From NCBI GenBank assembly GCA_964016885.1, contig OZ024762.1, positions 11,780,001 through 11,844,000 on the forward strand: a stretch of DNA of 64,000 nt, read 5' to 3'. Under the pieces are notes generated by a model. The model was given only the letters and a program-made list of their open reading frames with translations. It was not told the DNA's origin and did not search any database. Position 1 is the stretch's first letter. Every line of letters begins with the position of its first letter. The position numbers were made by a program, and so were the translations under genes. Shown here piece after piece: positions 3,165 to 36,640 of this stretch. Source of the stretch: Eledone cirrhosa (Eukaryota).

Positions 3165-3221
3165 TATATGCTGTTATATATATACAAAATACTAGCAGTT
3201 CCTTAATGGCTATATACCCTG

Positions 3222-3260
<39 letters not shown>

Positions 3261-3790: not shown

Positions 3791-3801
3791 TATTTATATA
3801 T

Positions 3802-6775: not shown

Positions 6776-8122
6776 GAAAAAAAAACCCCATACATACAGT
6801 TTTTTATAGAATACACTGCCTTGTTATATAAATATTGTACACACGTGTGTATATAATACACTTCTATATATATAGAAACTTACTACTAGATATTGTGTGT
6901 ACACAGCAAAGAATCTACTTTTTGTATGTAGAGACTCCTCTGTAACATCTAGAAGGCTTATATTTACTATCCTTCTCTATAATAAAAAAAAACCCATATA
7001 TACAGTAATACCTTATCTAGAGGCATATAAGAAACTGTATTTCACATCCCTAAACCCACCCTCCTAAGAAACTAAACTGTTCATGATAAAGAGGTTTAAT
7101 TTCTGCCTCTAGAAAAGTATTGGTGTTAGAGCTGTGTAATCTGGATTGTTTTTATTAATACCCTCTGCTTCTTTCCAGGTATGTTGAAGATCTCCGCCAG
7201 CTCAACTGATTGTGTAAATACACACAGTCGTCTCAAGAAATAAAATAACTCCAACAACAAAATGTAGTTTATTTATTGATCTTTATTTCACATTTTCATT
7301 TCTTATATATATACACAGGTAGTATCTTACATGTAGATCGTTTAACTTTCATTCATATTAAATATATAGGAATTAACAGCTGTGTATATATAACTAGTGG
7401 ATTGTTAAACACATGCCTAGAGATAAAAAGGTATTAACATGCGAGAGAATTCAATTATTATGTAATTAGTGAGAAACATCCTTCTTGAAAGAAGTGTATA
7501 TATAGAATAGATTAATTAATGTGTATGTACACTATAGAATCCCAGTAAGAAACATCCTTCTTACTGAAAGAAGTAAGTGTGGTGCTATAGAAAAGTTTCT
7601 TTGAGAATGGAAACTGTATATATATAATACAGTAATCCTAGCAAGTTTATTCCTTTCTGTGTATATAGGTATTCTATATCTCCTGTAAGAGGTTATAATA
7701 TCTATATATACAGGGCTATGTGGATATTCTATATCTCTCTCATATTTACCAGTAAGTATATAGGTATTAATAAAGAAGTTTCATATTATAAACATTTAAG
7801 ATGTGTATATATACAGTATTCTAGTAAGTTTATTTCCTTCTGTATATAGAATAAATTTGTATTCTATATCTCTCCCAGTATGTATATAGGAATAGAAGTA
7901 TGAATTCAGTTTGAAACATCTTTCATGAGAGTAATGTATATAATGCAGTATTATAGTGAGGCCATTTCTTTCTGTCTGTATACATATGCCTAGAGATAGA
8001 AGGGTGTTAATATGTATAGATTCTATAGAAGTAAGTGTATATACACACATGGTTTTAAGGTAATAGTATCCTATAGAATACACATACTAATCTCTATCTA
8101 GAGAAAAAAGTTCAACTCCTTA

Positions 8123-10957
8123 GCTATATATATATATATGTATATATACATACATATTTGTATACATACGTATGTATGTATATACTTATGTATACATACA
8201 TACGTATGTATGTATACATACGTATGTATGCATACATACATATGTATACATACGTATGTATACATACCTACGTATATATACATACCTACGTATATATACA
8301 TACGTATGTATATACATTCGTGTGTATATAAACATACGTATGTATGTATACATACGCATGTATGTATACATACACATGTATATATATACATAAGTATGTA
8401 TATATACATACGCATGTATACATATACATACATACGTATGTATGTATAGATACATACATACGTACGTATGTATGCATACCTATGTATGTATACATACATA
8501 CGTATGTATATACATACGTATGTATATAAACATACGTATGTATACATACGCATGTATGTATACATACGCATGTATATATATACATACGTATGTATATATA
8601 CATACGCATGTATACATATACATACATACGTATGTATGTATAGATACATACATACGTACGTATGTATGCATACCTATGTATGTATACATACGCATGTATA
8701 TATACATACGTATGCATATACATACGTATGTATCTATATATACGTATGTATATATATATACATACGTGTGTATGCATATACATAGGTATGCATACATACG
8801 TACGTATGCATGCATACATACGTATGTATATATACATACGTACGTATGTATGTATACATACGCATGTATATATACATACGTATGTATCTATATATACGTA
8901 TGTATGTATAAATACATACGTGTATATACATACATACATACGCATGTATATATATATATACATACGTATGTATGTATACATACGCTTGTATATATATACA
9001 TACGTATGTATGCATATACATACGCATGTATATATACATACGCATGTATATATATACATATGTATGTATACATACGCATGTATATATATACATACCTGTG
9101 TATGCGTATGTATGTATACATACGCATGTATATATATACATACGTATGTATAGATACATACATACGCATGTATATATACATACATATGTATAGATACATA
9201 CATACGTATGTATACATACGCATGTATAGATACATACGTACGTATGCATACCTATGTATGTATACATACGCATGTATATATATGTACATACGTATGTATG
9301 CATATACATACGTATGTATATATATACATATGTATGTATACATACGCATGTATATATATACATACGTGTGTATGCGTATGTATGTATACATATGCATGTA
9401 TATATATACATACGTGTGTATGTATACATACGTATGTATATATACATACGCATGTATATATACATACGCATGTATATATATACATACGCATGTATATATA
9501 TACATACGTATGTATATATATACATACGCATGTATATATATACATACGAATGTATGCATATACATACGTACGTATACATACGCATGTATATATATACATA
9601 CGTGTGTATGCATATACATACGTATGTATGTATGTATACATACGCATGTATATATATATACATACGTATGTATGCATATACATACGTATGTATATATACA
9701 TACGCATGTATATATATATACATACGTATGTATGCATATACATACGTATGTATATATACATACATACGCATGTATATATATACATACGAATGTATGCATA
9801 TATGTATGTATACATACGTATGCATACATACATACGTATGTATAAATACATACGCATGTATATATATACATACGCATGTATAGATACATACATACGCATG
9901 TATATATATACATACGTGTGTATGCATATACGTATGTATGTATACATACGCATGTATATATATATACATACGTATGCATGTATACATACGCATGTATATA
10001 TATACATACAAACGTATGCATACATACATACGTATGTATGTATACATACGCAAGCATATATATACATACGTATGTATATATACGTACGTATACATACATA
10101 CGTATGTATAAATACATACGCATGTATACATACGTACGTATGTATACATACGTATGTATGCATATACGTACGTATGTATGCATATACATACGTATGTATA
10201 TATATACATACGTATGTATATATACATACGTATGCATGTATACATACGCATGTATATATATACATACAAATGTATGCATATACATATGTATGTATACATA
10301 CATACGTATGTATGTATACATACGCATGTATATATATATACATACGTATGTATGCATATACATACGTATGTATATATATATACATACATACGCATGTATA
10401 TATATACATACGAATGTATGCATATATGTATGTATACATACGTATGCATACATACATACGTATGTATAAATGCATACGCATGTATATATATATATATACA
10501 TACGCATGTATAGATACATACATACGCATGTATATATACATACGTATGTATAGATACATACGCATGTATATATATACATACGTGTGTATGCATATACGTA
10601 TGTATGTATACATACGCATGTATATATATATACATACGTATGCATGTATACATACGCATGTATATATATACATACAAACGTATGCATACATACGTATGTA
10701 TGTATACATACGTATGTATATATACGTACGTATACATACATACGTATGTATAAATACATACGCATGTATATATATACATACGTATGTATACATATACATG
10801 CTTATGTATATATACATACGTATGTATATATATACATACGTATGTATGTATATAAACATACGTATGTATATATACATACGTATGTATGTATACATACATA
10901 CGTATGTATATATACATATGTATGTATATATACATACGTATGTATATATACATACAT
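8123..10957. repeat. Complex alternating purine/pyrimidine microsatellite (TA/TACA/TACG/CATG units), about 2.8 kb
   Basis: Read directly from the sequence. It is the source of the YIHTYVCM-type spurious ORFs. Confidence 0.97.
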
Positions 10958-12370
10958 CTTTAATTCCTTAGCTATATTTATATAATACAGTAGTCTAGAG
11001 ATGTATGTAGGTTGTTGTCTTTATATCTGTGTAGTGTAACTTCTAAATCTATAATGAAGATATGCTTTATATACACAAAGGTGTTTATATGGTGAGTATG
11101 CCTGTCTAGAGAACAGGGTAACTGCGTACATATGGTTCTACATACTGTACTCTATTGAACACAACTCCAATATATAATGGAGGTACTTCTTCCAATATAG
11201 AGAAGAAGGTATATTATAGACATGAAGTAAGCTTTGTGTGTCATATTGATTACAGTTTTTCTATATATGTGTGTATGTAAAGAACACTAAATTTCTTTGT
11301 ATTTATACAGTTAGCTCTCTTGCTTCTTAGGAAGCATGTACACGTTCTACTATGAGATGCTTATACACAACTAGAAGAACAATAGTAGTAGTTTCCTAAG
11401 AGACGTATGTGTAGTATCTAGTGAGAATGTATTGATATGTATGTACAGATCAAAACCTCTTATCTTATATATGTCGGATGTTCACTTCCAGGTTTCTACA
11501 TACACATGTATAATATAAAGAGAGACACACAATGTGGGTTTAGATATATTCTATAGAATACAGTTTCTTATATACAGACATGTCTACATTGATGTTATTT
11601 ACCTGTATATAGAGATGGTTTGTTTCTAATAGGTGTGTATCTAGGAAATAATTTATATAATATGAATCTAGTATACAGTGACAGAAGGTTTTTGTCTTCC
11701 TACAGTGTAAGAGGTGTCTAGTGTGTGTATATATACAGGGAGTAAATAATAAGGCAACAAAGGAAAATACTGGTTTATTCTTTTATTTCACAATTTATTT
11801 ACCTTTCTTCTTGAGATAGGGTTGTAGTAGTCTCCAGGTCTGGTCCTTAGGAATATAAAATAGGTTAGTTGTGTATATATAAAGGTTTAGTTTTGTATCT
11901 AGTGAAGAACGTTTATATATGGATGATGTAGCTATCAAGCAGGTGCGGATGCTAGAAGTAGTAGTAAGGAGTCTTACGGCAGAGTAATAGAGCTACCATG
12001 CTTCGTTAGATATAAAATATAACTGTATGGTTTAGCTTCTATATTCATATGTCTAGAGAAGGTTTAGTTTCATGTCTATTATTCCAGTATGAACAAGTTT
12101 GTATATTGCGCCTCATAAGTATCTGTGATGATAGAAGGGAGACCGTTTATATATGAATATAGCTTCATGTGTACGTATGTCCCCAGGATTCTTCCTATAC
12201 ATGGTTTACGGCTAATACATAAAAAGTGTCTTCTTGTATATAGAATATCTGTGTGTGTATTCAGGTATAAGATAAAATGTGTATCGAGAGGAAGTATGTA
12301 TATAGTATCGAGAGAAGATTTAGTTGTAACACGTTAGATCATGGTTAGTTTTGTTTCATAATAGAGGAGG

Positions 12371-13490
12371 GTAACATGTATGTTTAGTTAGAAGAGGTAG
12401 CTGCGTGTATATATTTAGTTTTGTTTCTTTAAAAGACATGGCAACTTACTTTTGTCTCTCAATAATGTGTGTGTATATACGGCAAATAAAACTTTACATA
12501 CCTCTTTACACGAACGTAAAATCCAAGTAAATAGAATGATGTTACCGCTTCAATACACTGAAGAGAAATGACAACAAAGTAAGAAGAGTTCCACAAACCG
12601 GAAGTAGTTCAATGTAAACAAAGGGCAAATAATTCAAATTGAGGGGAGATAACTCTCGTCAAATTGTTTGGCAAAAACTCATGCGAGGGGGAGAGCATGA
12701 GTTTTTCGGTATGGCATGACCACTCGATCGTGTCTGAAGTTCCCGCAACGATTCGAACTTCAGACACGATCGAGTGGTCATGCCATACCGAAGTACGACA
12801 ACGAAGCCAGAAACGCTACGTGCAGCGCCACGCACAAGCCGCAATTCTACAGAGTCAAATAGTCATACTTATAGCTAAACATTTTCCTTCTTTTTTAAAA
12901 AAAAAAAGAAACGGAAAGAAAGCAAGATAACACGACATATTCCGAGTGTTATCTCGTTTTCTTTCCGTTTCTCTTTCTATATAAATATAACGGGATATAT
13001 AGCCATTAAGGAACTGCTAGTGTTTTGTACATATATAACGGGATATACACGAATAGAAGCCAGGGAATATGTAGTAAGGGGTTGACTTATATAGGGAGTC
13101 AATAGTTTGACCATTTTTGCCCACTTCTCAGACATAAGATAAGGAGGAGGGTCACCTTATATTCGAGTATTTTGTACATCTATTCGTGTTAGACTAGACC
13201 GGCATCATCATGGGTAGAGCCGACCGGGTGCTACTGCGTTGAACGAGACTAAGGCTGTGATGGTCCTCAGGGCACTGCTGTCAATCGTCTTTGTGAGGGG
13301 CCACGTTTCTGCTCCATAGAGGAGAAGACTGATGCATCTTTTCAGAACAATTAATATGTAGGTAACATAGCCTTAGAGAGATCTGTATTTGTAATAGTTA
13401 GTATCGATTTGGGTAATCTTAAGACCATGATTCCAATCATCAATATATGTATTGATTAAACCTAAATATAGTATATAAAGAAGTGGATTT
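12371..13490 (-). repeat. Inverted copy of the arm-terminal module (GC-rich core, hairpin, one 48-bp unit, pogo/Tigger-like MITE end); mirrored at about 26700-27820
   Basis: 12371-13060 is the reverse complement of parts of 3155-4525. 13060-13490 matches 36660-37140 in direct orientation. Confidence 0.85.
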
Positions 13491-14199
13491 TAAAATATGC
13501 AATGATAGTGTCGAGAGAAGGCTTAGTTAGTTACTTCTAACAATGTACCACTATGAATAAGACAGAAGGCGGTGTATGTAGATAGAATGTTTAGTTTTCC
13601 TGAGTATGAAGGGGTTTTAGTTATTATTCTTAGTAAAAAGATGGTTATATTATACATATACGTCTCTAACATTCCTCCTGTATATGAAGGGTAGTGAAAT
13701 ATATTCTTGTGTCTCAGGAATAGCTACGTGTTTATCGATGAATTTAAGGGACAACTAAAACATTACATACCTCTTTAGAAGAATGAAGGTGTATATATAA
13801 ATGTAGCTTTATATGTGTATATTGATCTAGATAGGAAACTTTTCTTCCAGTGTATGGATTATAGAGGTGAATGCAATCACTAAAGAATGTTAATATATAT
13901 CTAAGACTGTATTTTCGAGTGTTTAGCAATGAATTAAAATATACATGGCAAATAAAGCGTTCGTATAGGTAAATTAGAGGGTATTTTACCTCAGCTAAAG
14001 AACATTTATATATATATAAATCTAGTTTTGTGTGTATTTAGGTTTAAATAAAACAATATGTACGTCTCTAGAATCTTTCTGTATATAGAATAATTGTTTC
14101 TACTTTTGGCACAAGGCCAGCAATTATCCAGTGCATTACTGGTACTTTATTTTATCGACCCCATAAGGATGAAAGGCATATAGAATAATGTATGTCTGT

Positions 14200-15290
14200 G
14201 AGTGTATATACGGCAAATAAAACATTACATACCTCTCACCATTAGTATAATATCCAGACTGATTCTATCAAATTACACGAGTAAATCCAAACGATGTTAA
14301 CAGTTTAATTCAATAAAGAAGAATGACAACAAACGAGAATAGTTCCAATCAGGGGCAAGTAATTCAAACGATAACTCTCGGCGAATTTTTTAGTAAAAAA
14401 TCAATGCGAGGCGGGGATGCAGGCCAGCATAACGCCGGGCTGCTGCCGCCGCAACGATTCGATCTTCAGACACATAGAATGGTCATGCCATACCGAAGTA
14501 CGACAGCGAAGTCCGAAACGTTACGTGCAGCGCCATGCACAGAGCGCAACTCTACCGAGTAAATTAGTCATACTTATAGTTAGAATTTTATTTATTAAAA
14601 AAATATATATATAGAGAAACGGAATGAAGACGAGATAACTGAGGGCGTGGAGAAATATCTCTTTCTGAATATATTTCGTATGGTGAGAGTTGAGATCTCT
14701 ACCGAATAATTATCAATATTATACTTCGTCTCCGAAATATTTTCAGAAAGAAATTACTTTTTCACGACCGTGTTACCTTACTTTCATCCCGTTTCTATAT
14801 GTAACAAGTTTAAACTACTAGTATTTAATACATATATATATATACAGAACAATAAGTATATTTACTTCAAGATAGTAATGTTTATGTTAATACAGAAAAT
14901 AAAAAATGCAAACCATCGATCTTAGTAATTAGTATCAATCACTAATTATCTATTTTGGTAATAAGCATCTTAAGACCATGATTTCCTTCATCGATATGTG
15001 ATTAGACCAAAATTTAGTATAATATATAAAGACTGTTCTCAGCTTATGACCAGTTTGCTTGGTGTTAAGTGTCTGAGAGTACAAGACTCTCCCTGGATAG
15101 TACGCTGGTCTACCACAGGACTAACTCCTCGGCTGTGAGTACTGGAGCAATGTGATGAATGCAGAACTTCCAAACTGTGAGAGTTACATGCATGCATGGA
15201 CCTGCAACTCCTAAGGGAGTCATACAGGCCACACATTGACATACAGTATTTCTAGGGCACTTTTTAAAACCTGTCAGACCCATCTCCTCT
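14200..15290 (-). repeat. Older, more diverged copy of the same module; mirrored at about 24900-25990
   Basis: Shares ggtcatgccataccgaagtacgacagcgaag with the other copies, and 15030-15280 matches 37150-37385. Confidence 0.75.
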
Positions 15291-17020
15291 CCAGGTCTGA
15301 ATACAGCAGATTTCTTCCAGAGAAACAGAAGAATCAACCTCAATACTAGACTGGTACTTTGTTTTATCAACCTCAAATGGATGAAAGGCAAAGTTGACCT
15401 CAGCAGGATTTTAATTCAGAGAACTGAAGGCATTTTCTGTTACATTCATATATACATACTTACTTTGTCTAATAAACAAAACATCTTCTCTCTACACACA
15501 CACAACATATAAAGCTACATTTATATATACCTCTTCTAAGAAATTAAACCTACTCTAGACTTACACATAGATACAGTTATATATAAATACTTACCTTGTC
15601 AAATAAACACAACTAAATCTCTCTAGTCAGACACACAAAGCTACATTTATATAAACATTCTTCTCTACAAAAGAGGATCAGCTGAAAAGCTCATAGGCTG
15701 GCTTTGAAGAAGTGATGCTAGAACTGCGAGATATTGTGGTTAGGTTCATTATCATAGGACTTGGTGGAGCAATCAAAATTCACTGCCAACTCATGTACAA
15801 CTTTATGATGTTCTTGATTCATCGGTGAAAAAGAATGACTCTGATAGTTCTGTTTCATGTGAGGAAGACAAAAGGAAACCTTCAGAGTGTGCATTGAGCA
15901 ATATGGGATATTTCTAGAATGTAACTAATGCCAACTTGAATCATCCTTGGACATCATCATACATAGTATATATATATAGTGTGTTTAGTACAGTGTAGTT
16001 GTAGCTAACTAGGTATTTGGTTTTATGAAATGAAAGGGACAAAAAAACAAACTATATATATACACTGATACTTCAATGTGTTATAAGTAATCCAATACCA
16101 CTGTTGGATACATAGAGTGCTTAATCCTGCTTACACCAAAGTTTATGGATTAAGGTGGTGCAAACACAACACTTAAATAAAGGAAACAATATATGGCCAT
16201 AGTACAGAAAATTCTTATAATATATATATATATATATATATATACATCTCGGGCTGGATTCTGTTGAGGGTCTTTGCCACACGTGACATCAATGAGATTC
16301 CCCTCAAACTCCTTCTCTTCCTTCCTGTAATCTCGTTGATCATCATCCAGCTCTCTTTACACTTACATATATATATATATATACACTGACCTCCTACAAG
16401 GTTACATCTCAAAGGAGGTTTACACCAGTTCTTTTATCCAGAAACTTTTTCAGGAACTGTGGACAAGGAGTTTCTTATGGTTGTAGGTTTTTTGAAAGGG
16501 GAAAAATAACAGAAGGTGATTGTCGTGTGAAGGAGGAAGATTGGTAGAGCAATGGACTCCACAGACACTGGTAAGGGTAACTTAGAACAGGATGGAAAGG
16601 TATTCATGGTGAGTGAAAAACCTAACCATTGTTTCAGCTACAGCGGCAGAGGAATCAAGTTATGGTGGGTTTGAAGAAAACAGAGTTGGATGTCTTCAAT
16701 GTAGTGACTATATAGACCAGAGGCTTTCAACATAACTGATGAGTGTTTCAGTGGAGACCAGCAACCTCTGAGGAGCAGGGACTACAGTAGTAGAGATAGA
16801 ATAGGCAGAGGGAACGGCATATTTAGGGGCTGGGGAGAAGCAGAGACCACTGTAGTAGAGGTAGAGAGGGAACAGCATATTTAGGGTTGGGGAGGAGCAG
16901 AGACCATTGTAGTAGAGGTAGAGAGGGAACATCATATTTATGGGCTGGGGAGGAGCAGAGACCATTGTAGTAGAGGTATAATGTGCAGAAGGAGGAGAGG
17001 CAATAATTGTGGACCAGAGC

Positions 17021-17310
17021 ATGTTGAATTGTTGATAAAGCTGGAGTGTCATCCCTTAATGTAGCAACCTTGTCAACATGAATGTCCTTGGGGGATAAAC
17101 CCCTTTTCCACAGGTACTTGATAATACCACGATGCCAAATGTCCATTTTCAAGAGGTCATTACTAATTACATTTGAAGTCCTCTTTCAACAGTCAGATGT
17201 CAGTTTACTTGGAAAGAAACAATGCAGTTATTAATAAGAAGAGTTGAAATTAATTCATGCAAGATTTCCCAGCTCTAGCATCAGTCCTTCATAGTCAGCC
17301 AACCTTCGTA
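17021..17310 (-). mobile_element. Mariner (Tc1/mariner) 5' end with transposase N-terminal HTH fragment
   Basis: MDIWHRGIIKYLWKRGLSPKDIHVDKVATLRDDTPALSTIQ resembles the mariner N-terminal helix-turn-helix. The terminus is TA-flanked (tacgaaggttggctga). Confidence 0.75.
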
Positions 17311-18669
17311 CTTCTGCTGGGTCAAGCCCGACGGGGGCTGACGTCTTAAACAAGCCCCAACAAATAAGAAAGATTTAGAAGAGAATATACTAATTACTAG
17401 ATATTCACACAAAAGTGACATTAGAATTATTGCTGGAAATAGCAGCCAAATATTTATCGTTCGCCACGTTTTAAAATAATGAAGGACACATTAGAAGATG
17501 TAGTTTTAGATGGTCATATATACACATATTGTTCAACGCTGGAATCTCATTGATTCTATATACATAAGTCGGTTCTCAGAGGACCTAGTCAGGTTGTGGG
17601 AACCGTTTGTCCCCCGTGTAAAAATTTGGCGTATATATATATAATTTCGAGTATATATATATATATATATACTTATATATGTCTGTATGCATTTTGTTGG
17701 GATTTAAATGGTGAAAATTTCATAAGGTAGCTGTTGTTTACTTTCATCGACAAGTCAGACCTGAGCGATCAAGACATATATTTACAAATACATAATCAAA
17801 AGTAAAAACATTGTTAATATCTTCCTACCGAGATAAAATATAAAATATTGTATTTACATGTGTCACAGCTAATTCACCTCCGTAATTCTTAGGAAACCTG
17901 GCTTCTATTTCTAGCAAGTGGAGCGTAGACGTAGAGACGTGTTGCTGTTGTTTACTTTTATTCACAGGTCTTGAACGAGCAAGACAAGATGACCCGACAT
18001 GTGTGTAATCGATGGTATACCTGCCGTGACCATCCTGTGTTTATATGATTATCAAGGTACCCACATCTACACCGTTGAATGCACCTTTCATTGTTTTAAA
18101 AGGGGTTGTAGAAGACAACATCTGAGGGTGAGAGGCCGGAGATCGTTAGTGAGTGGCTTTAAATTAATTAGCCATGATTCTATGAAATAAAGAAGCGAAA
18201 TCACTTTGAAGAAAAATAGGAGAACAATAGTAATTATTATGAGGCCGGTGTAGCGATTACATATTGCCCTTTGTTTACATTAACCCCTCCCGACATCATG
18301 GTAATTAGATATTCAGATTACAGGGAGGTGTGGGATGGAATTAATTCTTTTATTTATTTACTTATATCAAACAACAAACACGGTGGCAAGGAGTAAATTA
18401 AAAAAACTCGCCTTTCTTTTAAAATAAAATTCAAGCCTAACCTCTCCCATGATGCAACGGGGCAGGTAAATGATTTGGCGATTTAGCGACATCAGTTCCT
18501 TAAATTTCACCAGGACGAAATCTCAAGAACGATAACTCTGTCTTTACTTAATCGCAAAAATGGGTGCAAAAATTATTTCGAATCAACACTTGCTATGGAC
18601 GAAAACGACAATATTAAAAGTATTTTGTGGATTTTTAATAGGTGAACACATCATTATATATATATACAT

Positions 18670-18707
<38 letters not shown>

Positions 18708-18819
18708 ATATCCATATATATACATGTATATATATATATATACACATATACTCTTTTACCTGTTTCAGCCATCCGGCTGAGGCCATGCTGGGACACCGCC
18801 CTTGTTGCTACACATTTTA

Positions 18820-18980
18820 TCTCCAGCCTGTATAGGTTGGCCACTGGTGTAAGAGTGAGTTTGTTGCTGCTGCCCTTAGGTTTCCCTTGTGTCTTGCTGT
18901 GGGCTCATCCGTGATCCTGGATAACAAGGTGTCGAGATGTTTCTTGAAGACATCCACCTCCACGTCATGCAAATCTCTCA
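18820..18980 (-). mobile_element. CR1-like LINE 3' end fragment (mirror at 21210-21370, +)
   Basis: RDLHDVEVDVFKKHLDTLLSRITDEPT...RAAATNSLLHQ resembles CR1-group ORF2 C-termini. Confidence 0.55.
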
Positions 18981-19058
18981 TGTATATATATATACATGTA
19001 TATATATATATACATGTATATATATATATACATGTATATATAACTGTATATATATATA

Positions 19059-19987
19059 TAGCATCACTCCTCCATAGGATGACCAAGATACTCTCATGGA
19101 ATGTCCAAATGAGGTTTATTTTTCAACATGCAAGATTGCACAGCTCTAGCATCACTCCTTCATAGGCTGACCAAGATACTCTCATGGAATGACCAAATGA
19201 GGTTTATTTTTCAACATGCAAGATTGCACAGCTCTAGCATCACTCCTTGATAGGCTGACCAAGATACTCTCATGGAATGACCAAATGAGGTATATTTTTC
19301 AACATGCAAGATTGCACAGCCCTAGCATCACTCCTTCATAGGCTGACCAAGATACTCTCATGGAATGACCAAATGAGGTTTATTTTTCAACATGCAAGAT
19401 TGCACAGCTCTAGCATCACTCCTTCATAGGCTGACCAAGATACTCTCATGGAATGACCAAATGAGGTATATTTTTCAACATGCAAGATTGCACAGCTCTA
19501 GCATCACTCCTTCATAGGCTGACCAAGATACTCTCATGGAATGACCAAATGAGGTTTATTTTTCAACATGCAAGATTTCACAACTCTAGCATCACTCCTT
19601 CATAGGCTGACCAAGATACTCTCATGGAATGACCAAATGAGGTTTATTTTTCAACATGCAAGATTGCACAGCTCTAGCATCACTCCTTCATAGGCTGACC
19701 AAGATACTCTCATGGAATGACCAAATGAGGTTTATTTTTCAACATGCAAGATTTCACAGCCCTAGCATCACTCCTTCATAGGCTGACCAAGATACTCTCA
19801 TGGAATGACCAAATGAGGTTTATTTTTCAACATGCAAGATTTCACAGCTCTAGCATCACTCCTTCATAGGCTGACCAAGATACTCTCATGGAATGACCAA
19901 ATGAGGTTTATTTTTCAACATGCAAGATTGCAAGCATCACTCTTTCATAGTGAGCCTATGAACTTTTAAGCCTACCTTATATGCAAA
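19059..19987 (+). repeat. 88-bp tandem array derived from mariner termini (about 10 copies plus terminus)
   Basis: Units start at 19059, 19147, ... 19851. Part of the unit matches the mariner end at 17257-17300. Confidence 0.9.
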
Positions 19988-20460
19988 AATTACTAAGAAA
20001 TTAGAAATAATTTTTGCGATTAAGTAAATACAGGGTTATCGTTCTTGAGATTTCGGGTCAGAGAAATTTCAGGAACTGATGTCGCTAAATCGCCAAATCA
20101 TTTACCTGCCCCGTTGCCTCATGGGAGAGTAATGGCTGCCTTTTATTTTTTAAACGATGGCAGAATCTTTAGTTTCTTTCGCAGCATCTTGTTTCTTGTT
20201 TCATATAAGTAAATAATTACAACATTTTGGCGAGAAAGATATTAAAACGACTGACATGGTTTTCGAAAAATAAAAGGCAGCCATTACCCTCCCATGATGC
20301 AAAGGGGCAGGTAAATGATTTGGCGATTTAGCGACATCAGTTCCTGAAATTTCACCAGGAGGAAATCTCAAGAACGATAACTCCGTCTTTACTTAATCGC
20401 AAAAATGGGTGCAAAAATTATTTCTAATTTCTTAGTAATTATTTGTATATACTTACATTG
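19988..20460. mobile_element. Foldback/MITE-like element forming the palindrome centre (imperfect ~165-bp TIRs, ~115-bp loop)
   Basis: 19988-20150 is an imperfect reverse complement of about 20267-20440. Related half-copies lie at about 18350-18580 and 21610-21840. Confidence 0.75.
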
Positions 20461-21132
20461 TTTGCATATAAGGTAGGCTTAAAAGTTCATAGGCTCACTA
20501 TGAAAGAGTGATGCTAGGGCTGTACAATCTTGCATGTTGAAAAATAAACCTCATTTGGTCATTCCATGAGAGTATCTTGGTCAGCCTATGAAGGAGTGAT
20601 GCTAGGGCTGTGAAATCTTGCATGTTGAAAAATAAACCTCATTTGGTCATTCCATGAGAGTATCTTGGTCAGTCTATGAAGGAGTGATGCTAGGGCTGTG
20701 CAATCTTGCATGTTGAAAAATAAACCTCATTTGGTCATTCCATGAGAGTATCTTGGTCAGCCTATGAAGGAGTGATGCTAGGGCTGTGAAATCTTGCATG
20801 TTGAAAAATAAACCTCATTTGGTCATTCCATGAGAGTATCTTGGTCAGCCTATGAAGGAGTGATGCTAGAGCTGTGCAATCTTGCATGTTGAAAAATAAA
20901 CCTCATTTGGTCATTCCATGAGAGTATCTTGGTCAGCCTATGAAGGAGTGATGCTAGAGCTGTGAAATCTTGCATGTTGAAAAATAAACCTCATTTGGTC
21001 ATTCCATGAGAGTATCTTGGTCAGCCTATGAAGGAGTGATGCTAGAGCTGTGCAATCTTGCATGTTGAAAAATAAACCTCATTTGGACATTCCATGAGAG
21101 TATCTTGGTCATCCTATGGAGGAGTGATGCTA
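20461..21132 (-). repeat. 88-bp tandem array, inverted (7 copies plus terminus)
   Basis: Reverse-complement units with gatgcta ending at 20516, 20604, ... 21132. Confidence 0.9.
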
Positions 21133-21483
21133 TATATATATATACAGTTATATATACATGTATATATATATATACATGTATATATATATATACATGTATA
21201 TATATATACATGAGAGATTTGCATGACGTGGAGGTGGATGTCTTCAAGAAACATCTCGACACCTTGTTATCCAGGATCACGGATGAGCCCACAGCAAGAC
21301 ACAAGGGAAACCTAAGGGCAGCAGCAACAAACTCACTCTTACACCAGTGGCCAACCTATACAGGCTGGAGATAAAATGTGTAGCAACAAGGGCGGTGTCC
21401 CAGCATGGCCTCAGCCGGATGGCTGAAACAGGTAAAAGAGTATATGTGTATATATATATATATACATGTATATATATGGATAT

Positions 21484-21521
<38 letters not shown>

Positions 21522-22880
21522 ATGTATATATATATAATGATGTGTTCACCTATTAAAAATCCACAAAATACTTTTAATATTGTCGTTTTCGTCCATAGCA
21601 AGTGTTGATTCGAAATAATTTTTGCACCCATTTTTGCGATTAAGTAAAGACAGAGTTATCGTTCTTGAGATTTCGTCCTGGTGAAATTTAAGGAACTGAT
21701 GTCGCTAAATCGCCAAATCATTTACCTGCCCCGTTGCATCATGGGAGAGGTTAGGCTTGAATTTTATTTTAAAAGAAAGGCGAGTTTTTTTAATTTACTC
21801 CTTGCCACCGTGTTTGTTGTTTGATATAAGTAAATAAATAAAAGAATTAATTCCATCCCACACCTCCCTGTAATCTGAATATCTAATTACCATGATGTCG
21901 GGAGGGGTTAATGTAAACAAAGGGCAATATGTAATCGCTACACCGGCCTCATAATAATTACTATTGTTCTCCTATTTTTCTTCAAAGTGATTTCGCTTCT
22001 TTATTTCATAGAATCATGGCTAATTAATTTAAAGCCACTCACTAACGATCTCCGGCCTCTCACCCTCAGATGTTGTCTTCTACAACCCCTTTTAAAACAA
22101 TGAAAGGTGCATTCAACGGTGTAGATGTGGGTACCTTGATAATCATATAAACACAGGATGGTCACGGCAGGTATACCATCGATTACACACATGTCGGGTC
22201 ATCTTGTCTTGCTCGTTCAAGACCTGTGAATAAAAGTAAACAACAGCAACACGTCTCTACGTCTACGCTCCACTTGCTAGAAATAGAAGCCAGGTTTCCT
22301 AAGAATTACGGAGGTGAATTAGCTGTGACACATGTAAATACAATATTTTATATTTTATCTCGGTAGGAAGATATTAACAATGTTTTTACTTTTGATTATG
22401 TATTTGTAAATATATGTCTTGATCGCTCAGGTCTGACTTGTCGATGAAAGTAAACAACAGCTACCTTATGAAATTTTCACCATTTAAATCCCAACAAAAT
22501 GCATACAGACATATATAAGTATATATATATATATATATACTCGAAATTATATATATATACGCCAAATTTTTACACGGGGGACAAACGGTTCCCACAACCT
22601 GACTAGGTCCTCTGAGAACCGACTTATGTATATAGAATCAATGAGATTCCAGCGTTGAACAATATGTGTATATATGACCATCTAAAACTACATCTTCTAA
22701 TGTGTCCTTCATTATTTTAAAACGTGGCGAACGATAAATATTTGGCTGCTATTTCCAGCAATAATTCTAATGTCACTTTTGTGTGAATATCTAGTAATTA
22801 GTATATTCTCTTCTAAATCTTTCTTATTTGTTGGGGCTTGTTTAAGACGTCAGCCCCCGTCGGGCTTGACCCAGCAGAAG

Positions 22881-23170
22881 TACGAAGGTTGGCTGACTAT
22901 GAAGGACTGATGCTAGAGCTGGGAAATCTTGCATGAATTAATTTCAACTCTTCTTATTAATAACTGCATTGTTTCTTTCCAAGTAAACTGACATCTGACT
23001 GTTGAAAGAGGACTTCAAATGTAATTAGTAATGACCTCTTGAAAATGGACATTTGGCATCGTGGTATTATCAAGTACCTGTGGAAAAGGGGTTTATCCCC
23101 CAAGGACATTCATGTTGACAAGGTTGCTACATTAAGGGATGACACTCCAGCTTTATCAACAATTCAACAT
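22881..23170 (+). mobile_element. Mariner 5' end with transposase N-terminal fragment (mirror copy)
   Basis: N-terminus of ORF 23039-23368; mirror of 17021-17310. Confidence 0.75.
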
Positions 23171-26100
23171 GCTCTGGTCCACAATTATTGCCTCTCCTCC
23201 TTCTGCACATTATACCTCTACTACAATGGTCTCTGCTCCTCCCCAGCCCATAAATATGATGTTCCCTCTCTACCTCTACTACAATGGTCTCTGCTCCTCC
23301 CCAACCCTAAACATGCTGTTCCCTCTCTACCTCTACTACAGTGGTCTCTGCTTCTCCCCAGCCCCTAAATATGCCGTTCCCTCTGCCTATTCTATCTCTA
23401 CTACTGTAGTCCCTGCTCCTCAGAGGTTGCTGGTCTCCACTGAAACACTCATCAGTTATGTTGAAAGCCTCTGGTCTATATAGTCACTACATTGAAGACA
23501 TCCAACTCTGTTTTCTTCAAACCCACCATAACTTGATTCCTCTGCCGCTGTAGCTGAAACAATGGTTAGGTTTTTCACTCACCATGAATACCTTTCCATC
23601 CTGTTCTAAGTTACCCTTACCAGTGTCTGTGGAGTCCATTGCTCTACCAATCTTCCTCCTTCACACGACAATCACCTTCTGTTATTTTTCCCCTTTCAAA
23701 AAACCTACAACCATAAGAAACTCCTTGTCCACAGTTCCTGAAAAAGTTTCTGGATAAAAGAACTGGTGTAAACCTCCTTTGAGATGTAACCTTGTAGGAG
23801 GTCAGTGTATATATATATATATATGTAAGTGTAAAGAGAGCTGGATGATGATCAACGAGATTACAGGAAGGAAGAGAAGGAGTTTGAGGGGAATCTCATT
23901 GATGTCACGTGTGGCAAAGACCCTCAACAGAATCCAGCCCGAGATGTATATATATATATATATATATATATTATAAGAATTTTCTGTACTATGGCCATAT
24001 ATTGTTTCCTTTATTTAAGTGTTGTGTTTGCACCACCTTAATCCATAAACTTTGGTGTAAGCAGGATTAAGCACTCTATGTATCCAACAGTGGTATTGGA
24101 TTACTTATAACACATTGAAGTATCAGTGTATATATATAGTTTGTTTTTTTGTCCCTTTCATTTCATAAAACCAAATACCTAGTTAGCTACAACTACACTG
24201 TACTAAACACACTATATATATATACTATGTATGATGATGTCCAAGGATGATTCAAGTTGGCATTAGTTACATTCTAGAAATATCCCATATTGCTCAATGC
24301 ACACTCTGAAGGTTTCCTTTTGTCTTCCTCACATGAAACAGAACTATCAGAGTCATTCTTTTTCACCGATGAATCAAGAACATCATAAAGTTGTACATGA
24401 GTTGGCAGTGAATTTTGATTGCTCCACCAAGTCCTATGATAATGAACCTAACCACAATATCTCGCAGTTCTAGCATCACTTCTTCAAAGCCAGCCTATGA
24501 GCTTTTCAGCTGATCCTCTTTTGTAGAGAAGAATGTTTATATAAATGTAGCTTTGTGTGTCTGACTAGAGAGATTTAGTTGTGTTTATTTGACAAGGTAA
24601 GTATTTATATATAACTGTATCTATGTGTAAGTCTAGAGTAGGTTTAATTTCTTAGAAGAGGTATATATAAATGTAGCTTTATATGTTGTGTGTGTGTAGA
24701 GAGAAGATGTTTTGTTTATTAGACAAAGTAAGTATGTATATATGAATGTAACAGAAAATGCCTTCAGTTCTCTGAATTAAAATCCTGCTGAGGTCAACTT
24801 TGCCTTTCATCCATTTGAGGTTGATAAAACAAAGTACCAGTCTAGTATTGAGGTTGATTCTTCTGTTTCTCTGGAAGAAATCTGCTGTATTCAGACCTGG
24901 AGAGGAGATGGGTCTGACAGGTTTTAAAAAGTGCCCTAGAAATACTGTATGTCAATGTGTGGCCTGTATGACTCCCTTAGGAGTTGCAGGTCCATGCATG
25001 CATGTAACTCTCACAGTTTGGAAGTTCTGCATTCATCACATTGCTCCAGTACTCACAGCCGAGGAGTTAGTCCTGTGGTAGACCAGCGTACTATCCAGGG
25101 AGAGTCTTGTACTCTCAGACACTTAACACCAAGCAAACTGGTCATAAGCTGAGAACAGTCTTTATATATTATACTAAATTTTGGTCTAATCACATATCGA
25201 TGAAGGAAATCATGGTCTTAAGATGCTTATTACCAAAATAGATAATTAGTGATTGATACTAATTACTAAGATCGATGGTTTGCATTTTTTATTTTCTGTA
25301 TTAACATAAACATTACTATCTTGAAGTAAATATACTTATTGTTCTGTATATATATATATGTATTAAATACTAGTAGTTTAAACTTGTTACATATAGAAAC
25401 GGGATGAAAGTAAGGTAACACGGTCGTGAAAAAGTAATTTCTTTCTGAAAATATTTCGGAGACGAAGTATAATATTGATAATTATTCGGTAGAGATCTCA
25501 ACTCTCACCATACGAAATATATTCAGAAAGAGATATTTCTCCACGCCCTCAGTTATCTCGTCTTCATTCCGTTTCTCTATATATATATTTTTTTAATAAA
25601 TAAAATTCTAACTATAAGTATGACTAATTTACTCGGTAGAGTTGCGCTCTGTGCATGGCGCTGCACGTAACGTTTCGGACTTCGCTGTCGTACTTCGGTA
25701 TGGCATGACCATTCTATGTGTCTGAAGATCGAATCGTTGCGGCGGCAGCAGCCCGGCGTTATGCTGGCCTGCATCCCCGCCTCGCATTGATTTTTTACTA
25801 AAAAATTCGCCGAGAGTTATCGTTTGAATTACTTGCCCCTGATTGGAACTATTCTCGTTTGTTGTCATTCTTCTTTATTGAATTAAACTGTTAACATCGT
25901 TTGGATTTACTCGTGTAATTTGATAGAATCAGTCTGGATATTATACTAATGGTGAGAGGTATGTAATGTTTTATTTGCCGTATATACACTCACAGACATA
26001 CATTATTCTATATGCCTTTCATCCTTATGGGGTCGATAAAATAAAGTACCAGTAATGCACTGGATAATTGCTGGCCTTGTGCCAAAAGTAGAAACAATTA

Positions 26101-29100
26101 TTCTATATACAGAAAGATTCTAGAGACGTACATATTGTTTTATTTAAACCTAAATACACACAAAACTAGATTTATATATATATAAATGTTCTTTAGCTGA
26201 GGTAAAATACCCTCTAATTTACCTATACGAACGCTTTATTTGCCATGTATATTTTAATTCATTGCTAAACACTCGAAAATACAGTCTTAGATATATATTA
26301 ACATTCTTTAGTGATTGCATTCACCTCTATAATCCATACACTGGAAGAAAAGTTTCCTATCTAGATCAATATACACATATAAAGCTACATTTATATATAC
26401 ACCTTCATTCTTCTAAAGAGGTATGTAATGTTTTAGTTGTCCCTTAAATTCATCGATAAACACGTAGCTATTCCTGAGACACAAGAATATATTTCACTAC
26501 CCTTCATATACAGGAGGAATGTTAGAGACGTATATGTATAATATAACCATCTTTTTACTAAGAATAATAACTAAAACCCCTTCATACTCAGGAAAACTAA
26601 ACATTCTATCTACATACACCGCCTTCTGTCTTATTCATAGTGGTACATTGTTAGAAGTAACTAACTAAGCCTTCTCTCGACACTATCATTGCATATTTTA
26701 AAATCCACTTCTTTATATACTATATTTAGGTTTAATCAATACATATATTGATGATTGGAATCATGGTCTTAAGATTACCCAAATCGATACTAACTATTAC
26801 AAATACAGATCTCTCTAAGGCTATGTTACCTACATATTAATTGTTCTGAAAAGATGCATCAGTCTTCTCCTCTATGGAGCAGAAACGTGGCCCCTCACAA
26901 AGACGATTGACAGCAGTGCCCTGAGGACCATCACAGCCTTAGTCTCGTTCAACGCAGTAGCACCCGGTCGGCTCTACCCATGATGATGCCGGTCTAGTCT
27001 AACACGAATAGATGTACAAAATACTCGAATATAAGGTGACCCTCCTCCTTATCTTATGTCTGAGAAGTGGGCAAAAATGGTCAAACTATTGACTCCCTAT
27101 ATAAGTCAACCCCTTACTACATATTCCCTGGCTTCTATTCGTGTATATCCCGTTATATATGTACAAAACACTAGCAGTTCCTTAATGGCTATATATCCCG
27201 TTATATTTATATAGAAAGAGAAACGGAAAGAAAACGAGATAACACTCGGAATATGTCGTGTTATCTTGCTTTCTTTCCGTTTCTTTTTTTTTTTAAAAAA
27301 GAAGGAAAATGTTTAGCTATAAGTATGACTATTTGACTCTGTAGAATTGCGGCTTGTGCGTGGCGCTGCACGTAGCGTTTCTGGCTTCGTTGTCGTACTT
27401 CGGTATGGCATGACCACTCGATCGTGTCTGAAGTTCGAATCGTTGCGGGAACTTCAGACACGATCGAGTGGTCATGCCATACCGAAAAACTCATGCTCTC
27501 CCCCTCGCATGAGTTTTTGCCAAACAATTTGACGAGAGTTATCTCCCCTCAATTTGAATTATTTGCCCTTTGTTTACATTGAACTACTTCCGGTTTGTGG
27601 AACTCTTCTTACTTTGTTGTCATTTCTCTTCAGTGTATTGAAGCGGTAACATCATTCTATTTACTTGGATTTTACGTTCGTGTAAAGAGGTATGTAAAGT
27701 TTTATTTGCCGTATATACACACACATTATTGAGAGACAAAAGTAAGTTGCCATGTCTTTTAAAGAAACAAAACTAAATATATACACGCAGCTACCTCTTC
27801 TAACTAAACATACATGTTACCCTCCTCTATTATGAAACAAAACTAACCATGATCTAACGTGTTACAACTAAATCTTCTCTCGATACTATATACATACTTC
27901 CTCTCGATACACATTTTATCTTATACCTGAATACACACACAGATATTCTATATACAAGAAGACACTTTTTATGTATTAGCCGTAAACCATGTATAGGAAG
28001 AATCCTGGGGACATACGTACACATGAAGCTATATTCATATATAAACGGTCTCCCTTCTATCATCACAGATACTTATGAGGCGCAATATACAAACTTGTTC
28101 ATACTGGAATAATAGACATGAAACTAAACCTTCTCTAGACATATGAATATAGAAGCTAAACCATACAGTTATATTTTATATCTAACGAAGCATGGTAGCT
28201 CTATTACTCTGCCGTAAGACTCCTTACTACTACTTCTAGCATCCGCACCTGCTTGATAGCTACATCATCCATATATAAACGTTCTTCACTAGATACAAAA
28301 CTAAACCTTTATATATACACAACTAACCTATTTTATATTCCTAAGGACCAGACCTGGAGACTACTACAACCCTATCTCAAGAAGAAAGGTAAATAAATTG
28401 TGAAATAAAAGAATAAACCAGTATTTTCCTTTGTTGCCTTATTATTTACTCCCTGTATATATACACACACTAGACACCTCTTACACTGTAGGAAGACAAA
28501 AACCTTCTGTCACTGTATACTAGATTCATATTATATAAATTATTTCCTAGATACACACCTATTAGAAACAAACCATCTCTATATACAGGTAAATAACATC
28601 AATGTAGACATGTCTGTATATAAGAAACTGTATTCTATAGAATATATCTAAACCCACATTGTGTGTCTCTCTTTATATTATACATGTGTATGTAGAAACC
28701 TGGAAGTGAACATCCGACATATATAAGATAAGAGGTTTTGATCTGTACATACATATCAATACATTCTCACTAGATACTACACATACGTCTCTTAGGAAAC
28801 TACTACTATTGTTCTTCTAGTTGTGTATAAGCATCTCATAGTAGAACGTGTACATGCTTCCTAAGAAGCAAGAGAGCTAACTGTATAAATACAAAGAAAT
28901 TTAGTGTTCTTTACATACACACATATATAGAAAAACTGTAATCAATATGACACACAAAGCTTACTTCATGTCTATAATATACCTTCTTCTCTATATTGGA
29001 AGAAGTACCTCCATTATATATTGGAGTTGTGTTCAATAGAGTACAGTATGTAGAACCATATGTACGCAGTTACCCTGTTCTCTAGACAGGCATACTCACC

Positions 29101-29233
29101 ATATAAACACCTTTGTGTATATAAAGCATATCTTCATTATAGATTTAGAAGTTACACTACACAGATATAAAGACAACAACCTACATACATCTCTAGACTA
29201 CTGTATTATATAAATATAGCTAAGGAATTAAAG

Positions 29234-31775
29234 ATGTATGTATATATACATACGTATGTATATATACATACATACGTATGTATATATACATACGTATGTA
29301 TATATATACATACGTATGTATATATACATAAGCATGTATATGTATACATACGTATGTATATATATACATGCGTATGTATTTATACATACGTATGTATGTA
29401 TACGTACGTATATATACATACGTATGTATACATACATATGTATGTATGCATACGTTTGTATGTATATATATATACATGCGTATGCATACGTATGTATATA
29501 TATATACATGCGTATGTATACATACATACGTATATATACATACTTGCGTATGTATACATACATACGTATATGCATACACACGTATGTATATATATACATG
29601 CGTATGTATCTATACATGCGTATGTATATATATATATATACATGCGTATGTATTTATACATACGTCTGTATATATATATGCATACATTCGTATGTATATG
29701 CATACATACGTATGTATATATACATGCGTATGTATACATACATACGTATATATACATACATATGTATATGCATACATTTGTATGTATATATATACATGCG
29801 TATGTATACATGCATACGTATGTATATATACATACGTATGTATATATATACATACGTATGTATATGCATACATACGTACGTATATGCATACATACGTATG
29901 TATACATGCGTATGTATGTATGTATGCATACGTTTGTATGTATATATATACATGCGTATGTATACATACATACTTACGTATGTATGTATCTATACGTATG
30001 TATGTATCTATACATGCGTATGTATACATACATACGTATATGCATACACACGTATGTATATATATACATGCGTATGTATATATACATGCGTATGTATGTA
30101 TTTATACATGCGTATGTATATATATATACATGCGTATGTATTTATACATACGTATGTATGTATGCATACGTATGTATACATACATATATGCATACATTCG
30201 TATGTATATATATACATGCGTATGTATGTATATATATATACATGCGTATGTATACATACATACGTATGTATGTATATGCATACATTTGTATGTATATATA
30301 TACATGCGTATGTATACATGCATACGTATGTATATGCATACATACGTACGTATATGCATACATACGTATGTATATATATATACATGCGTATGTATGTATA
30401 CATGCGTATGTATGTATCTATACATGCGTATGTATACATACGTATGTATATGCATACACACGTATGTATGTATATATACATGCGTATGTATATATACATG
30501 CGTATGTATATATATACATGCATATGTATACATACATACGTATGTATACATACATACGTATATATACATGCATATGTATATGCATACATACGTATGTATA
30601 TATATACAAGCGTAAGTATATATATATACATACGTATGTATATGCATACATACGTATGTACATATATATACATGCGTATGTATACATACATAGGTATGCA
30701 TACATACGTACGTATGTATGTATACATACATGCGTATGTATGTATCTATACATGCGTATGTATACATACATACGTATGTATGTATCTATACATACGTATG
30801 TATATATATACATGCGTATGTATACATACATACGCATACACACGTATGTATATATATACATGCGTATGTATATATACATGCGTATGTATATGCATACATA
30901 CGTATGTATATATATATATACATACGTACGTACGTATGTATGCATACCTATGTATATGCATACACACGTATGTATATATATACATGCGTATGTATACATA
31001 CATACGTATGTATGTATCTATACATACATACGTATGTAAATATACGTATGTATATATATACATGCGTATGTATGTATATACACGTATGTATTTATACATA
31101 CGTATGTATATGCATACGTATGTATATATACATGCGTATGTATACATACATAGGTATGCATACATACGTACGTATGTATGTATTTATACATACATACGTA
31201 TGTATGTAAATATACGTATGTATATGTATACATGCGTATGTATACATACATGCGTATGTATACATACATGCGTATGTATACATACATGCGTATGTATACA
31301 TACATACGTATGTTTATATACATACGTATGTATACATACATAGGTATGCATACATACGTATGTATATATACATACATATATATACATACGTATGTATATG
31401 CATACGTATGTATATATACGTATGTATATATATATATATATATACGTATGTGTATATATACATACGTAGGTATGTATACATACCTACGTATGTATATATA
31501 TACATACGTATTTATACATACGTATGTATGCATACACACGAATGTATATACATACGTATGTATATATACGTAGGTATGTATATATACGTAGGTATGTATA
31601 TATACATAGGTATGTATACATACGTATGTATGTATACATATGTATGTATGCATACATACGTATGTATACATACATACGTATGTATGTATACATAAGTATA
31701 TACATACATACGTATGTATACAAATATGTATGTATATATATATATACGTATGTATATATACATACATATATATAG
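29234..31775. repeat. Mirror copy of the complex RY microsatellite, about 2.5 kb
   Basis: Same units and same flanks in reverse complement, about 290 bp shorter than the left copy. Confidence 0.97.
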
Positions 31776-33127
31776 CTAAGGAGTTGAACTTTTTTCTCTA
31801 GATAGAGATTAGTATGTGTATTCTATAGGATACTATTACCTTAAAACCACGTGTGTATATACACTTACTTCTATAGAATCTATACATATTAACACCCTTC
31901 TATCTCTAGGCATATGTATACAGACAGAAAGAAATGGCCTCACTATAATACTGCATTATATACACTACTTTCATGAAAGATGTTTCAAACTGAATTCATA
32001 CTTCTATTCCTATATACATACTGGGAGAGATATAGAATACAAATTTATTCTATATACAGAAGGAAATAAACTTACTAGAATACTGTATATATACACATCT
32101 TAAATGTTTATAATATGAAACTTCTTTATTAATACCTATATACTTACTGGTAAATATGAGAGAGATATAGAATATCCACATAGCCCTGTATATATAGATA
32201 TTATAACCTCTTACAGGAGATATAGAATACCTATATACACAGAAAGAAATAAACTTGCTAGGATTACTGTATTATATATATACAGTTTCCATTCTCAAAG
32301 AAACTTTTCTATAGCACCACACTTACTTCTTTCAGTAAGAAGGATGTTTCTTACTGGGATTCTATAGTGTACATACACATTAATTAATCTATTCTATATA
32401 TACACTTCTTTCAAGAAGGATGTTTCTCACTAATTACATAATAATTGAATTCTCTCGCATGTTAATACCTTTTTATCTCTAGGCATGTGTTTAACAATCC
32501 ACTAGTTATATATACACAGCTGTTAATTCCTATATATTTAATATGAATGAAAGTTAAACGATCTACATGTAAGATACTACCTGTGTATATATATAAGAAA
32601 TGAAAATGTGAAATAAAGATCAATAAATAAACTACATTTTGTTGTTGGAGTTATTTTATTTCTTGAGACGACTGTGTGTATTTACACAATCAGTTGAGCT
32701 GGCGGAGATCTTCAACATACCTGGAAAGAAGCAGAGGGTATTAATAAAAACAATCCAGATTACACAGCTCTAACACCAATACTTTTCTAGAGGCAGAAAT
32801 TAAACCTCTTTATCATGAACAGTTTAGTTTCTTAGGAGAGTGGGTTTAGGGATGTGAAATACAGTTTCTTATATGCCTCTAGATAAGGTATTACTGTATA
32901 TATGGGTTTTTTTTTATTATAGAGAAGGATAGTAAATATAAGCCTTCTAGATGTTACAGAGGAGTCTCTACATACAAAAAGTAGATTCTTTGCTGTGTAC
33001 ACACAATATCTAGTAGTAAGTTTCTATATATATATAGAAGTGTATTATATACACACATGTGTACAATATTTATATAACAAGGCAGTGTATTCTATAAAAA
33101 ACTGTATGTATGGGGAGTTTTTTTCCT

Positions 33128-36111: not shown

Positions 36112-36640
36112 TAACGGGATATATAACCATTGAGGAACTGCTAGTATTTTGTACATATATATAACAGGGTATATAGCCATTGAGGAACTACTAGTATTTT
36201 GTATATATATAACAGAGTATATAGCCATTGAGGAACTACTAGTATTTTGTATATATATAACAGGGTATATAGCCATTGAGGAACTACTAGTATTTTGTAT
36301 ATATATAACAGAGTATATAGCCATTGAGGAACTACTAGTATTTTGTATATATATAACAGGGTATATAGCTATTAAGGAACTACTAGTATTTTGTATATAT
36401 ATAACAGGGTATATAGCCATTGAGGAACTACTAGTATTTTGTATATATATAACAGGGTATATAGCCATTGACTAACTGCTAGTATATTGTACATATATTA
36501 CAGGGTATGTAGACATTGAGGAACTGTTAGTATTTCATACATATATAGCCATTGAGGAACTACTAGTATTTTGTACATATATAACAGGATATATAGTCGT
36601 TAAGGGACTACTAGTATATTGTACATATATAACAGGATAT
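36112..36640 (-). repeat. 48-bp minisatellite at the outer end of the right arm
   Basis: Reverse complement of the 3165-3790 unit, with a different copy number and different variants. Confidence 0.9.

Follow-up and report, generated by a model that had tools for sequence, protein, structure and literature searches.

Related palindromes and the Eledone locus

Palindromes with arms of more than 8 kb that are more than 99% identical and flank a short spacer are described on the primate X and Y chromosomes (human P6; X palindromes P1–P26; PMC8327919, PMC8600007; these and the other sources cited here are drawn on in part). The same features are shared by an inverted duplication of the octopus Eledone cirrhosa, which is the subject of this analysis. 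It lies in a window of 64,000 nucleotides, the whole stretch of DNA that was analyzed (GenBank assembly GCA_964016885.1, contig OZ024762.1, positions 11,780,001–11,844,000 of the forward strand; coordinates below count from the first letter of the window). Set beside the primate definition (PMC8327919), the arms comprise 8,309 bp at 99.99% identity and 4,324 bp at 99.5%, and the spacer is a single-copy loop of ~115 bp; a protein-coding gene family in the arms or spacer, which is usual though not strict in the primate class, was not found among the 71 frames scanned. For human P6, conversion tracts of up to 9,023 bp are inferred (PMC3723533), and the octopus locus carries a multi-kilobase tract of that size. 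In contrast to the primate palindromes, the locus is smaller (17-kb arms), no intact gene was found in it, and identity falls into zones that end abruptly at tandem arrays; conversion is inferred here from one sequence and not from haplotypes or species. Palindrome conversion tracts are usually inferred from sparse markers, with outer limits unknown (PMC3723533). In the octopus, both ends of the tract are placed to within ~200 bp and fall at tandem arrays, so that the locus offers an inexpensive way to test whether arrays initiate or terminate conversion tracts. The tract is cleanly delimited, and the locus represents a known process in a new taxon; it would be a case outside sex-chromosome gene families. 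No report of a cephalopod or octopus palindrome with gene conversion was found in the literature searched, most subscription journals lying outside it. The reach is modest because this is a single locus without evident function.

The W palindromes W.P1 and W.P2 of the willow Salix purpurea have arms of ~20 kb and, like the octopus locus, identity zones. These zones are >99% and 96–99% identical, and conversion is confined to part of the arms (PMC7023750). The converted part in willow contains a candidate sex-determination gene, and its conversion was shown with a second species, whereas the octopus tract holds only an orphan exon fragment.

Human fold-back inverted duplications (Hermetz et al. 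2014, PMC3907307) feature a single-copy spacer, short inverted homology, and small junction slips, all of which recur here; the short inverted homology bordering the spacer is a 141-bp repeat. The octopus locus differs in being interstitial and only 17 kb long, and its arms are not uniformly identical: uniform identity holds for the 8.3-kb tract, whereas the outer arms and the arrays differ. The rearrangement classes DUP-TRP/INV-DUP and ODIRA (PMC10766186, PMC6480824) share with it an inverted gain, an interrupted palindromic junction, and possibly a homologue-derived part, but the window contains one palindromic junction, two copies, and no triplicated segment. By analogy, the locus may work like the primate X/Y and willow W palindromes and may have formed like a fold-back duplication. 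A foldback-type transposon with giant terminal inverted repeats was rejected, as the repeat in which the right arm ends extends on into the flank. No direct repeat across the two palindrome ends was seen by eye, and the search for a transposase in the palindrome gave only a subthreshold DDE_Tnp_1 match (E 0.01, 16 bits against a cut-off of 23).

An identical tract between two tandem arrays

As judged by self-BLAST and alignments, the palindrome consists of a left arm at 3146–20150 (+) and a right arm at 20266–36661 (−), each of ~17 kb, around the loop at 20151–20265; its total span is ~33 kb. These are the only two arm copies in the 64 kb (masked self-BLAST, with 3.1 kb of left flank visible). 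The flanks of the two arms are unrelated, and the centre is asymmetric.

The identical tract occupies 10917–19225 on the left arm (+) and 20966–29274 on the right arm (−). At a constant mirror sum of 40191, that is, the sum of two paired positions, its 8,309 bp show one mismatch and no indel (99.99% identity). The mismatch at 16879/23312 is A on the left and G on the right, a transition outside any homopolymer, and G is derived relative to two other 58-bp units. The sequence-only reading, made before any alignment, had claimed this sum without net indel for 10958–19060, where 1 mismatch in 8,103 positions and 0 indels are counted; its sums of 39903, 39901, and 39899 outside a giant microsatellite and its 2-nt indel at 6243/33658 are reproduced as well. 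The tract spans the unique sequence that separates two tandem arrays, edge to edge: it ends 41 bp inside the microsatellite on the outer side and 167 bp inside an array of 88-bp units on the inner side. The chance that random ends would land at both array edges is 0.4–2.4%, a rough and post hoc figure.

Beyond the microsatellite, the unique outer arm (3802–8125, +; right copy 31775–36101, −, from the alignment) carries 22 substitutions in 4,324 bp, or 0.51% (95% confidence interval [CI] 0.32–0.77%), and three indels of 1, 2, and 2 nt. The contrast with the tract is strong (Fisher p=8.5e-10): at the outer rate 42 inner differences are expected and 1 is observed (Poisson 1.9e-17), and a difference-free run of 5,962 bp arises in 2 of 200,000 uniform simulations. 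The outer events are evenly spread (Kolmogorov–Smirnov p=0.81 for 24 event positions; longest identical run 592 bp), and the change is therefore a step, not a gradient; both uniform divergence and a gradient along the arms are rejected by these statistics. Simple runs are equal in length on both arms in 18 of 18 cases in the tract and in 3 of 6 outside it (p=0.01, post hoc). The full arm alignment thus bears out the step between inner and outer arm that the sequence-only reading had proposed. The outer arms it called diverged do differ, but by 0.5% only, and its two tiers, correct at the microsatellite, become three zones: a diverged outer arm, a near-identical tract, and arms that diverge again inside 19226.

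The explanation we favour, held at somewhat less than an even chance, is an older fold-back palindrome followed by one recent, long arm-to-arm conversion that was stopped by the arrays. A fold-back at the 141-bp central inverted repeat would have formed a palindrome with 17-kb arms, which would then have drifted to a difference of 0.5%. A break in or beside the self-complementary microsatellite would have allowed the broken end to invade the opposite arm, and long synthesis or gap repair would have spanned the unique interval, so that 8.3 kb were recopied from one arm onto the other. Copying would end where the out-of-register arrays permit re-annealing or block heteroduplex extension. Tracts of such length have precedents in human P6, as given above, and in yeast, where mitotic conversion tracts average ~12 kb and long ones are ascribed to gap repair (PMC2646836). 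Large indels disrupt conversion between paralogues (PMC3924837), which supports heterology barriers in a general way only. The avian IG case (10.64898/2026.09.05.749481) involves donors of somatic conversion and was discarded as a parallel. Homogenization between the arms that stops at the microsatellite, as the sequence-only reading had suggested, is thus kept as the best account, with the addition of an inner stop, which falls within unit 2 of the 88-bp array.

The same three zones would follow without any conversion if an old palindrome had been inverted by an arm-to-arm crossover at the microsatellite and an allelic crossover between flipped and unflipped forms had then occurred at the start of the 88-bp array, leaving the same paralogous copy on both arms. 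Inversions of palindrome arms are common on the primate X (PMC8327919). This course is very unlikely, as it requires two reciprocal events, each at an array edge, and in Y palindrome P6 the count is 56 conversions against 3 inversions (PMC3723533).

The differences in the outer arms look like genuine mutations, read as such because of their spectrum (15 transitions, 7 transversions) and the derived states found on both arms; sequencing errors are rejected on the same two grounds. Among seven polarized sites, 4221 and 5652 are clearly left-derived, 4117 and 5038 clearly right-derived, two are weakly left-derived, and one is ambiguous. Polarization relied on comparison with paralogues or homologous proteins, and sites 4413, 4601, and 4960 were left out, the inner paralogue being too diverged or deleted there. 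An assembly or polishing artefact would instead place the error in the tract: reads from the inner arms would have been pooled, or a collapsed segment traversed twice, with the arrays and the flank-anchored outer arms kept distinct. A tract ending at arrays, where alignments break, is predicted equally by such an artefact; some octopus assemblies combine noisy long reads with short-read polishing (10.1101/2023.05.16.540928, PMC9795677), and fold-back reads make up ~0.55–0.6% of nanopore genomic reads, against virtually none in HiFi data (PMC12870357). We consider it quite unlikely. A derived transition outside any homopolymer separates the inner copies, and the bases appear highly accurate even in regions that short reads polish poorly, with 0 phase flips among the 2,685 dinucleotides of both microsatellites and 15 of 16 88-bp units of exact length. 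The asymmetric centre and unrelated flanks are unlike a fold-back read or a duplicated haplotig, and the arms are not identical up to the turn: the centre-proximal 0.9 kb differs, and homology extends a further 7.8 kb at lower identity. A collapse at 0.5% should, moreover, have affected the outer arms too.

The array boundaries and the palindrome centre

The outer boundary is a giant compound microsatellite of TA, CA, TG, and CG units, 2,833 bp long on the left (8125–10957) and 2,541 bp on the right (29234–31774), with 97% purine–pyrimidine alternation; the open reading frames over it are low-complexity frames. The two copies are collinear and homologous, the longest exact match being 157 bp in arm orientation against 47 bp in the opposite orientation, and are separated by 53–77 indels under three scoring schemes. 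A length difference of 58 bp and one rare variant persist between them within ~100 bp of the inner edge, so the step sits at that edge. Overlapping hairpin centres of at least 12 bp number 72 in the microsatellite, 0 in the outer arm, and 28 in the inner tract. A 13-bp direct repeat, a candidate target-site duplication, flanks the array at 8117–8129 and 10965–10977 (+), with mirrors at 31770–31782 and 29214–29226; these four matches in the window are reached in 0 of 100 shuffles. Because the repeat flanks the array on both arms, the microsatellite was probably inserted at this site before the palindrome arose, and it may have expanded from a templated insertion or from a tail of the retroposon type.

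At this boundary, an allelic origin of the outer differences has to be weighed. The fold-back would be young, as young as the identical tract, and primed at a preexisting inverted repeat of 0.7–0.9 kb composed of the 88-bp arrays together with the centre. On one side, microsatellite and outer arm would derive from another allele, either because synthesis stalled at the microsatellite and switched template to the homologue or through a later ordinary crossover there. The 0.5% would then be polymorphism and not age, and arm-to-arm conversion would be unneeded. Indeed, 0.51% (CI 0.32–0.77%) falls inside the range of 0.08–1.22% quoted for octopus heterozygosity: 1.22% in O. vulgaris (10.1101/2023.05.16.540928) and 0.96%, 1.10%, and 0.08% in A. 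fangsiao, O. sinensis, and O. bimaculoides, respectively (PMC9795677), with a disagreeing 0.34% for O. sinensis in PMC12564688. No coincidence is needed to explain the recency of the tract, two alleles account equally well for the derived states on both arms, and a thinning of differences inside the microsatellite is compatible. Switches between homologues are reported in inverted rearrangements and known in human inverted gains (PMC6480824, PMC10766186). On the other hand, it takes three steps, namely a seed repeat, a fold-back, and an allelic exchange, or else a pair of allelic exchanges that both fall in arrays. A first crossover in the microsatellite has a probability of 0.03–0.08 in a toy model with r/mu from 0.5 to 5, and since the copies differ to ~100 bp of the inner edge the crossover target narrows further, which leaves a stall-and-switch unaffected. 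We regard this origin as rather unlikely, though it is the strongest of the alternatives. The formation of the palindrome in two steps, offered by the sequence-only reading, is supported in some form, but allelic diversity as the source of the outer 0.5% had been overlooked. If the allelic origin were true, the locus would neatly illustrate why the age of a young duplication cannot be read from the divergence of its arms.

The inner boundary is formed by arrays of an 88-bp unit, with 10 units on the left (19059–19932, +) and 7 on the right (20516–21132, −). The arms share unit 1 down to its three diagnostic variants and first diverge at position 79 of unit 2, where the tract ends. Beyond it, four unit types are left-only and three right-only. 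The arrays carry 5 private substitutions, against 3.4 expected at the outer rate (P=0.25) and 0.08 at the inner rate (P=2.5e-8); they match the outer rate and not the inner one, which fits one older palindrome reaching from 3146 to the centre. Of the units that are followed by a further unit start, all but one are exactly 88 bp long, the exception having a 7-bp deletion. A simple in-register deletion that would turn one array into the other was rejected, as only left units 1 and 7–8 are collinear with right units 1 and 3–4; past the tract, the longest exact match between the arrays is 258 bp and out of register. Both arrays may descend from an ancestor of 16 units, each arm having lost a different part by deletion. 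As a separate observation, the 88-bp unit and the 55-bp end piece next to it (19059–19987, 20461–21132) resemble the fused ends of a small inverted-repeat transposon, possibly a mariner.

Centre-ward of the 88-bp arrays, 55 bases are identical, followed by three left-only deletions of 7, 20, and 12 bp. The central inverted repeat, a candidate fold-back seed, lies at 20010–20150 (+) and 20266–20406 (−), the right half being the reverse complement of the left, with 128 of 141 positions identical (91%). The 141-bp repeat is a member of a dispersed family, with a third copy at 18420–18561. Together, the 91% inverted repeat, the 115-bp loop, and the three small left-only deletions alongside appear to form the signature of a fold-back, whose published model comprises a single-copy spacer, short inverted homology, and slips near the junction (PMC3907307). 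The right centre is without the three deletions. The right arm looks parental and the left arm like the fold-back copy, because the right end sits inside a dispersed repeat that reaches into the flank, whereas the left arm stops against retroelement pol-like sequence. This repeat, family E, continues past the right-arm end at 36661, and the left-arm end at ~3145 falls in the middle of an E copy that abuts the pol-like sequence. Matches between E copies are 12985–13484 with 36579–37145 (71.5%) and 14952–15278 with 37068–37385 (78%).

Identity running from the centre outward is rejected by the differing 88-bp arrays and the differing centre. This bears on recurrent hairpin or cruciform repair, which would homogenize the inner arms from the centre outward until blocked by the microsatellite. 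Such repair would explain both the recency and the confinement of the tract, and the centre at 19933–20516 can fold into a long stem with a predicted −235 kcal/mol. But action from the centre should homogenize the centre-proximal arrays first, and these have 10 and 7 units with private variants, next to three unrepaired deletions and a repeat of 91% identity. Cruciform repair, the other mechanism named in the sequence-only reading, accordingly fails on this point, and we hold it to be most improbable.

Several points weigh against the single recent conversion that we favour. One haplotype cannot show conversion, which is inferred here from a single sequence. The private variants of the tandem arrays are a weak clock, because one copy can retain old variants that the other loses, as the heavily reshuffled 48-bp arrays at the outer palindrome ends illustrate. 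A lone event would have to lie very close to the present, at ~2% of the outer age with an upper bound of ~13–20%, yet the outer arm is without trace of other conversions, as its 592-bp maximum of identity indicates. The outer divergence lies within reported octopus heterozygosity, as detailed above. Finally, the differences between the microsatellite copies become fewer towards the inner edge (Spearman rho −0.68 to −0.86, p 0.012–0.094 by scoring), and this thinning could reflect a switch point inside the array.

A variant of conversion takes the arrays as hard boundaries: the self-complementary microsatellite would both trigger and cap repair, and the whole interval between the arrays would be repeatedly recopied as a unit in a gene-free palindrome, with no selection on genes. 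We judge this unlikely. If it were true, microsatellite-rich octopus genomes would be partitioned into array-bounded conversion domains.

Sequence content of the arms and flanks

The content of the arms is limited to decayed fragments of retroelements and a single orphan NFX1-like exon; no intact gene was found in them. The outer arm carries a decayed reverse transcriptase (RT) fragment of a non-LTR (long terminal repeat) retrotransposon at 4970–6310 (−), with its mirror at 33788–34867 (+). It matches Pfam RVT_1 (E 5e-27) and contains stops, and its named relative of highest identity, among the 120 of 1,192 matches listed, is an Octopus sinensis protein (74%). Inside the identical tract, an exon-like fragment of 43 aa at 15730–15858 (−; mirror 24333–24461, +) matches the R3H domain (Pfam R3H, E 4.7e-9), and both matched candidates (2 of 2) are Octopus NFX1/shuttle-craft proteins at 70–74%. 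The relatives of these two fragments by themselves make an octopus origin of the DNA likely. The rest of this protein of 1,200 aa has no match elsewhere in the window; the fragment may be a captured or decayed piece of a gene. It alone exceeds the Pfam cut-off among 71 stop-to-stop frames of the left flank, left arm, and centre, a scan that exons of <55 aa could escape. Rfam searches of the sequence at gathering thresholds gave no family and the tRNA search none. A functional RNA or a gene under selection for identity was rejected on these grounds, the orphan R3H piece being all that the frame scan gave. Nothing in the sequence suggests selection for arm identity, and no function is implied.

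The outermost parts of the arms are 48-bp tandem arrays at 3165–3798 on the left and 36104–36641 on the right, with strong left/right differences in unit order and variants. Family E is found at 3741–4533, 12363–13484, 14353–15278, and 36579–37385, with three copies per arm in both orientations and 76–87% identity overall. Its first two copies form an older inverted pair that encloses the RT fragment and the microsatellite, which hints at earlier inverted duplications. At 12705–12792 (mirror 27399–27486), a small inversion–duplication with arms of ~35 bp replaces part of one E copy and resembles a template-switch scar.

The left flank holds decayed pol-like pieces of an LTR retroelement at 2229–3145, namely protease and RT in order, broken off at the palindrome junction; none of the matches is strong (protease E 0.016, RT E 0.14, one solved RT chain E 0.68). 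Three stretches, at 120–206, 745–874, and 2023–2133, look like exons and have credible splice sites; a search with 745–874 found no relative. In the right flank, an inverted repeat of 162 bp and 98.8% identity (58255–58416 and 59234–59395) surrounds ~820 bp with a 37-bp tandem array and is possibly a young miniature inverted-repeat transposable element. A perfectly pure (ATGT)135 lies at 56378–56917 beside a 17-bp × 38 array. Arrays built from pieces of dispersed repeats are present at 50892–51348, 60427–60980, 61795–62476, and 41808–42124, with units of 76, 48, 68, and 45 bp, respectively, and suggest that repeat ends are commonly amplified in tandem at a local scale in this genome.

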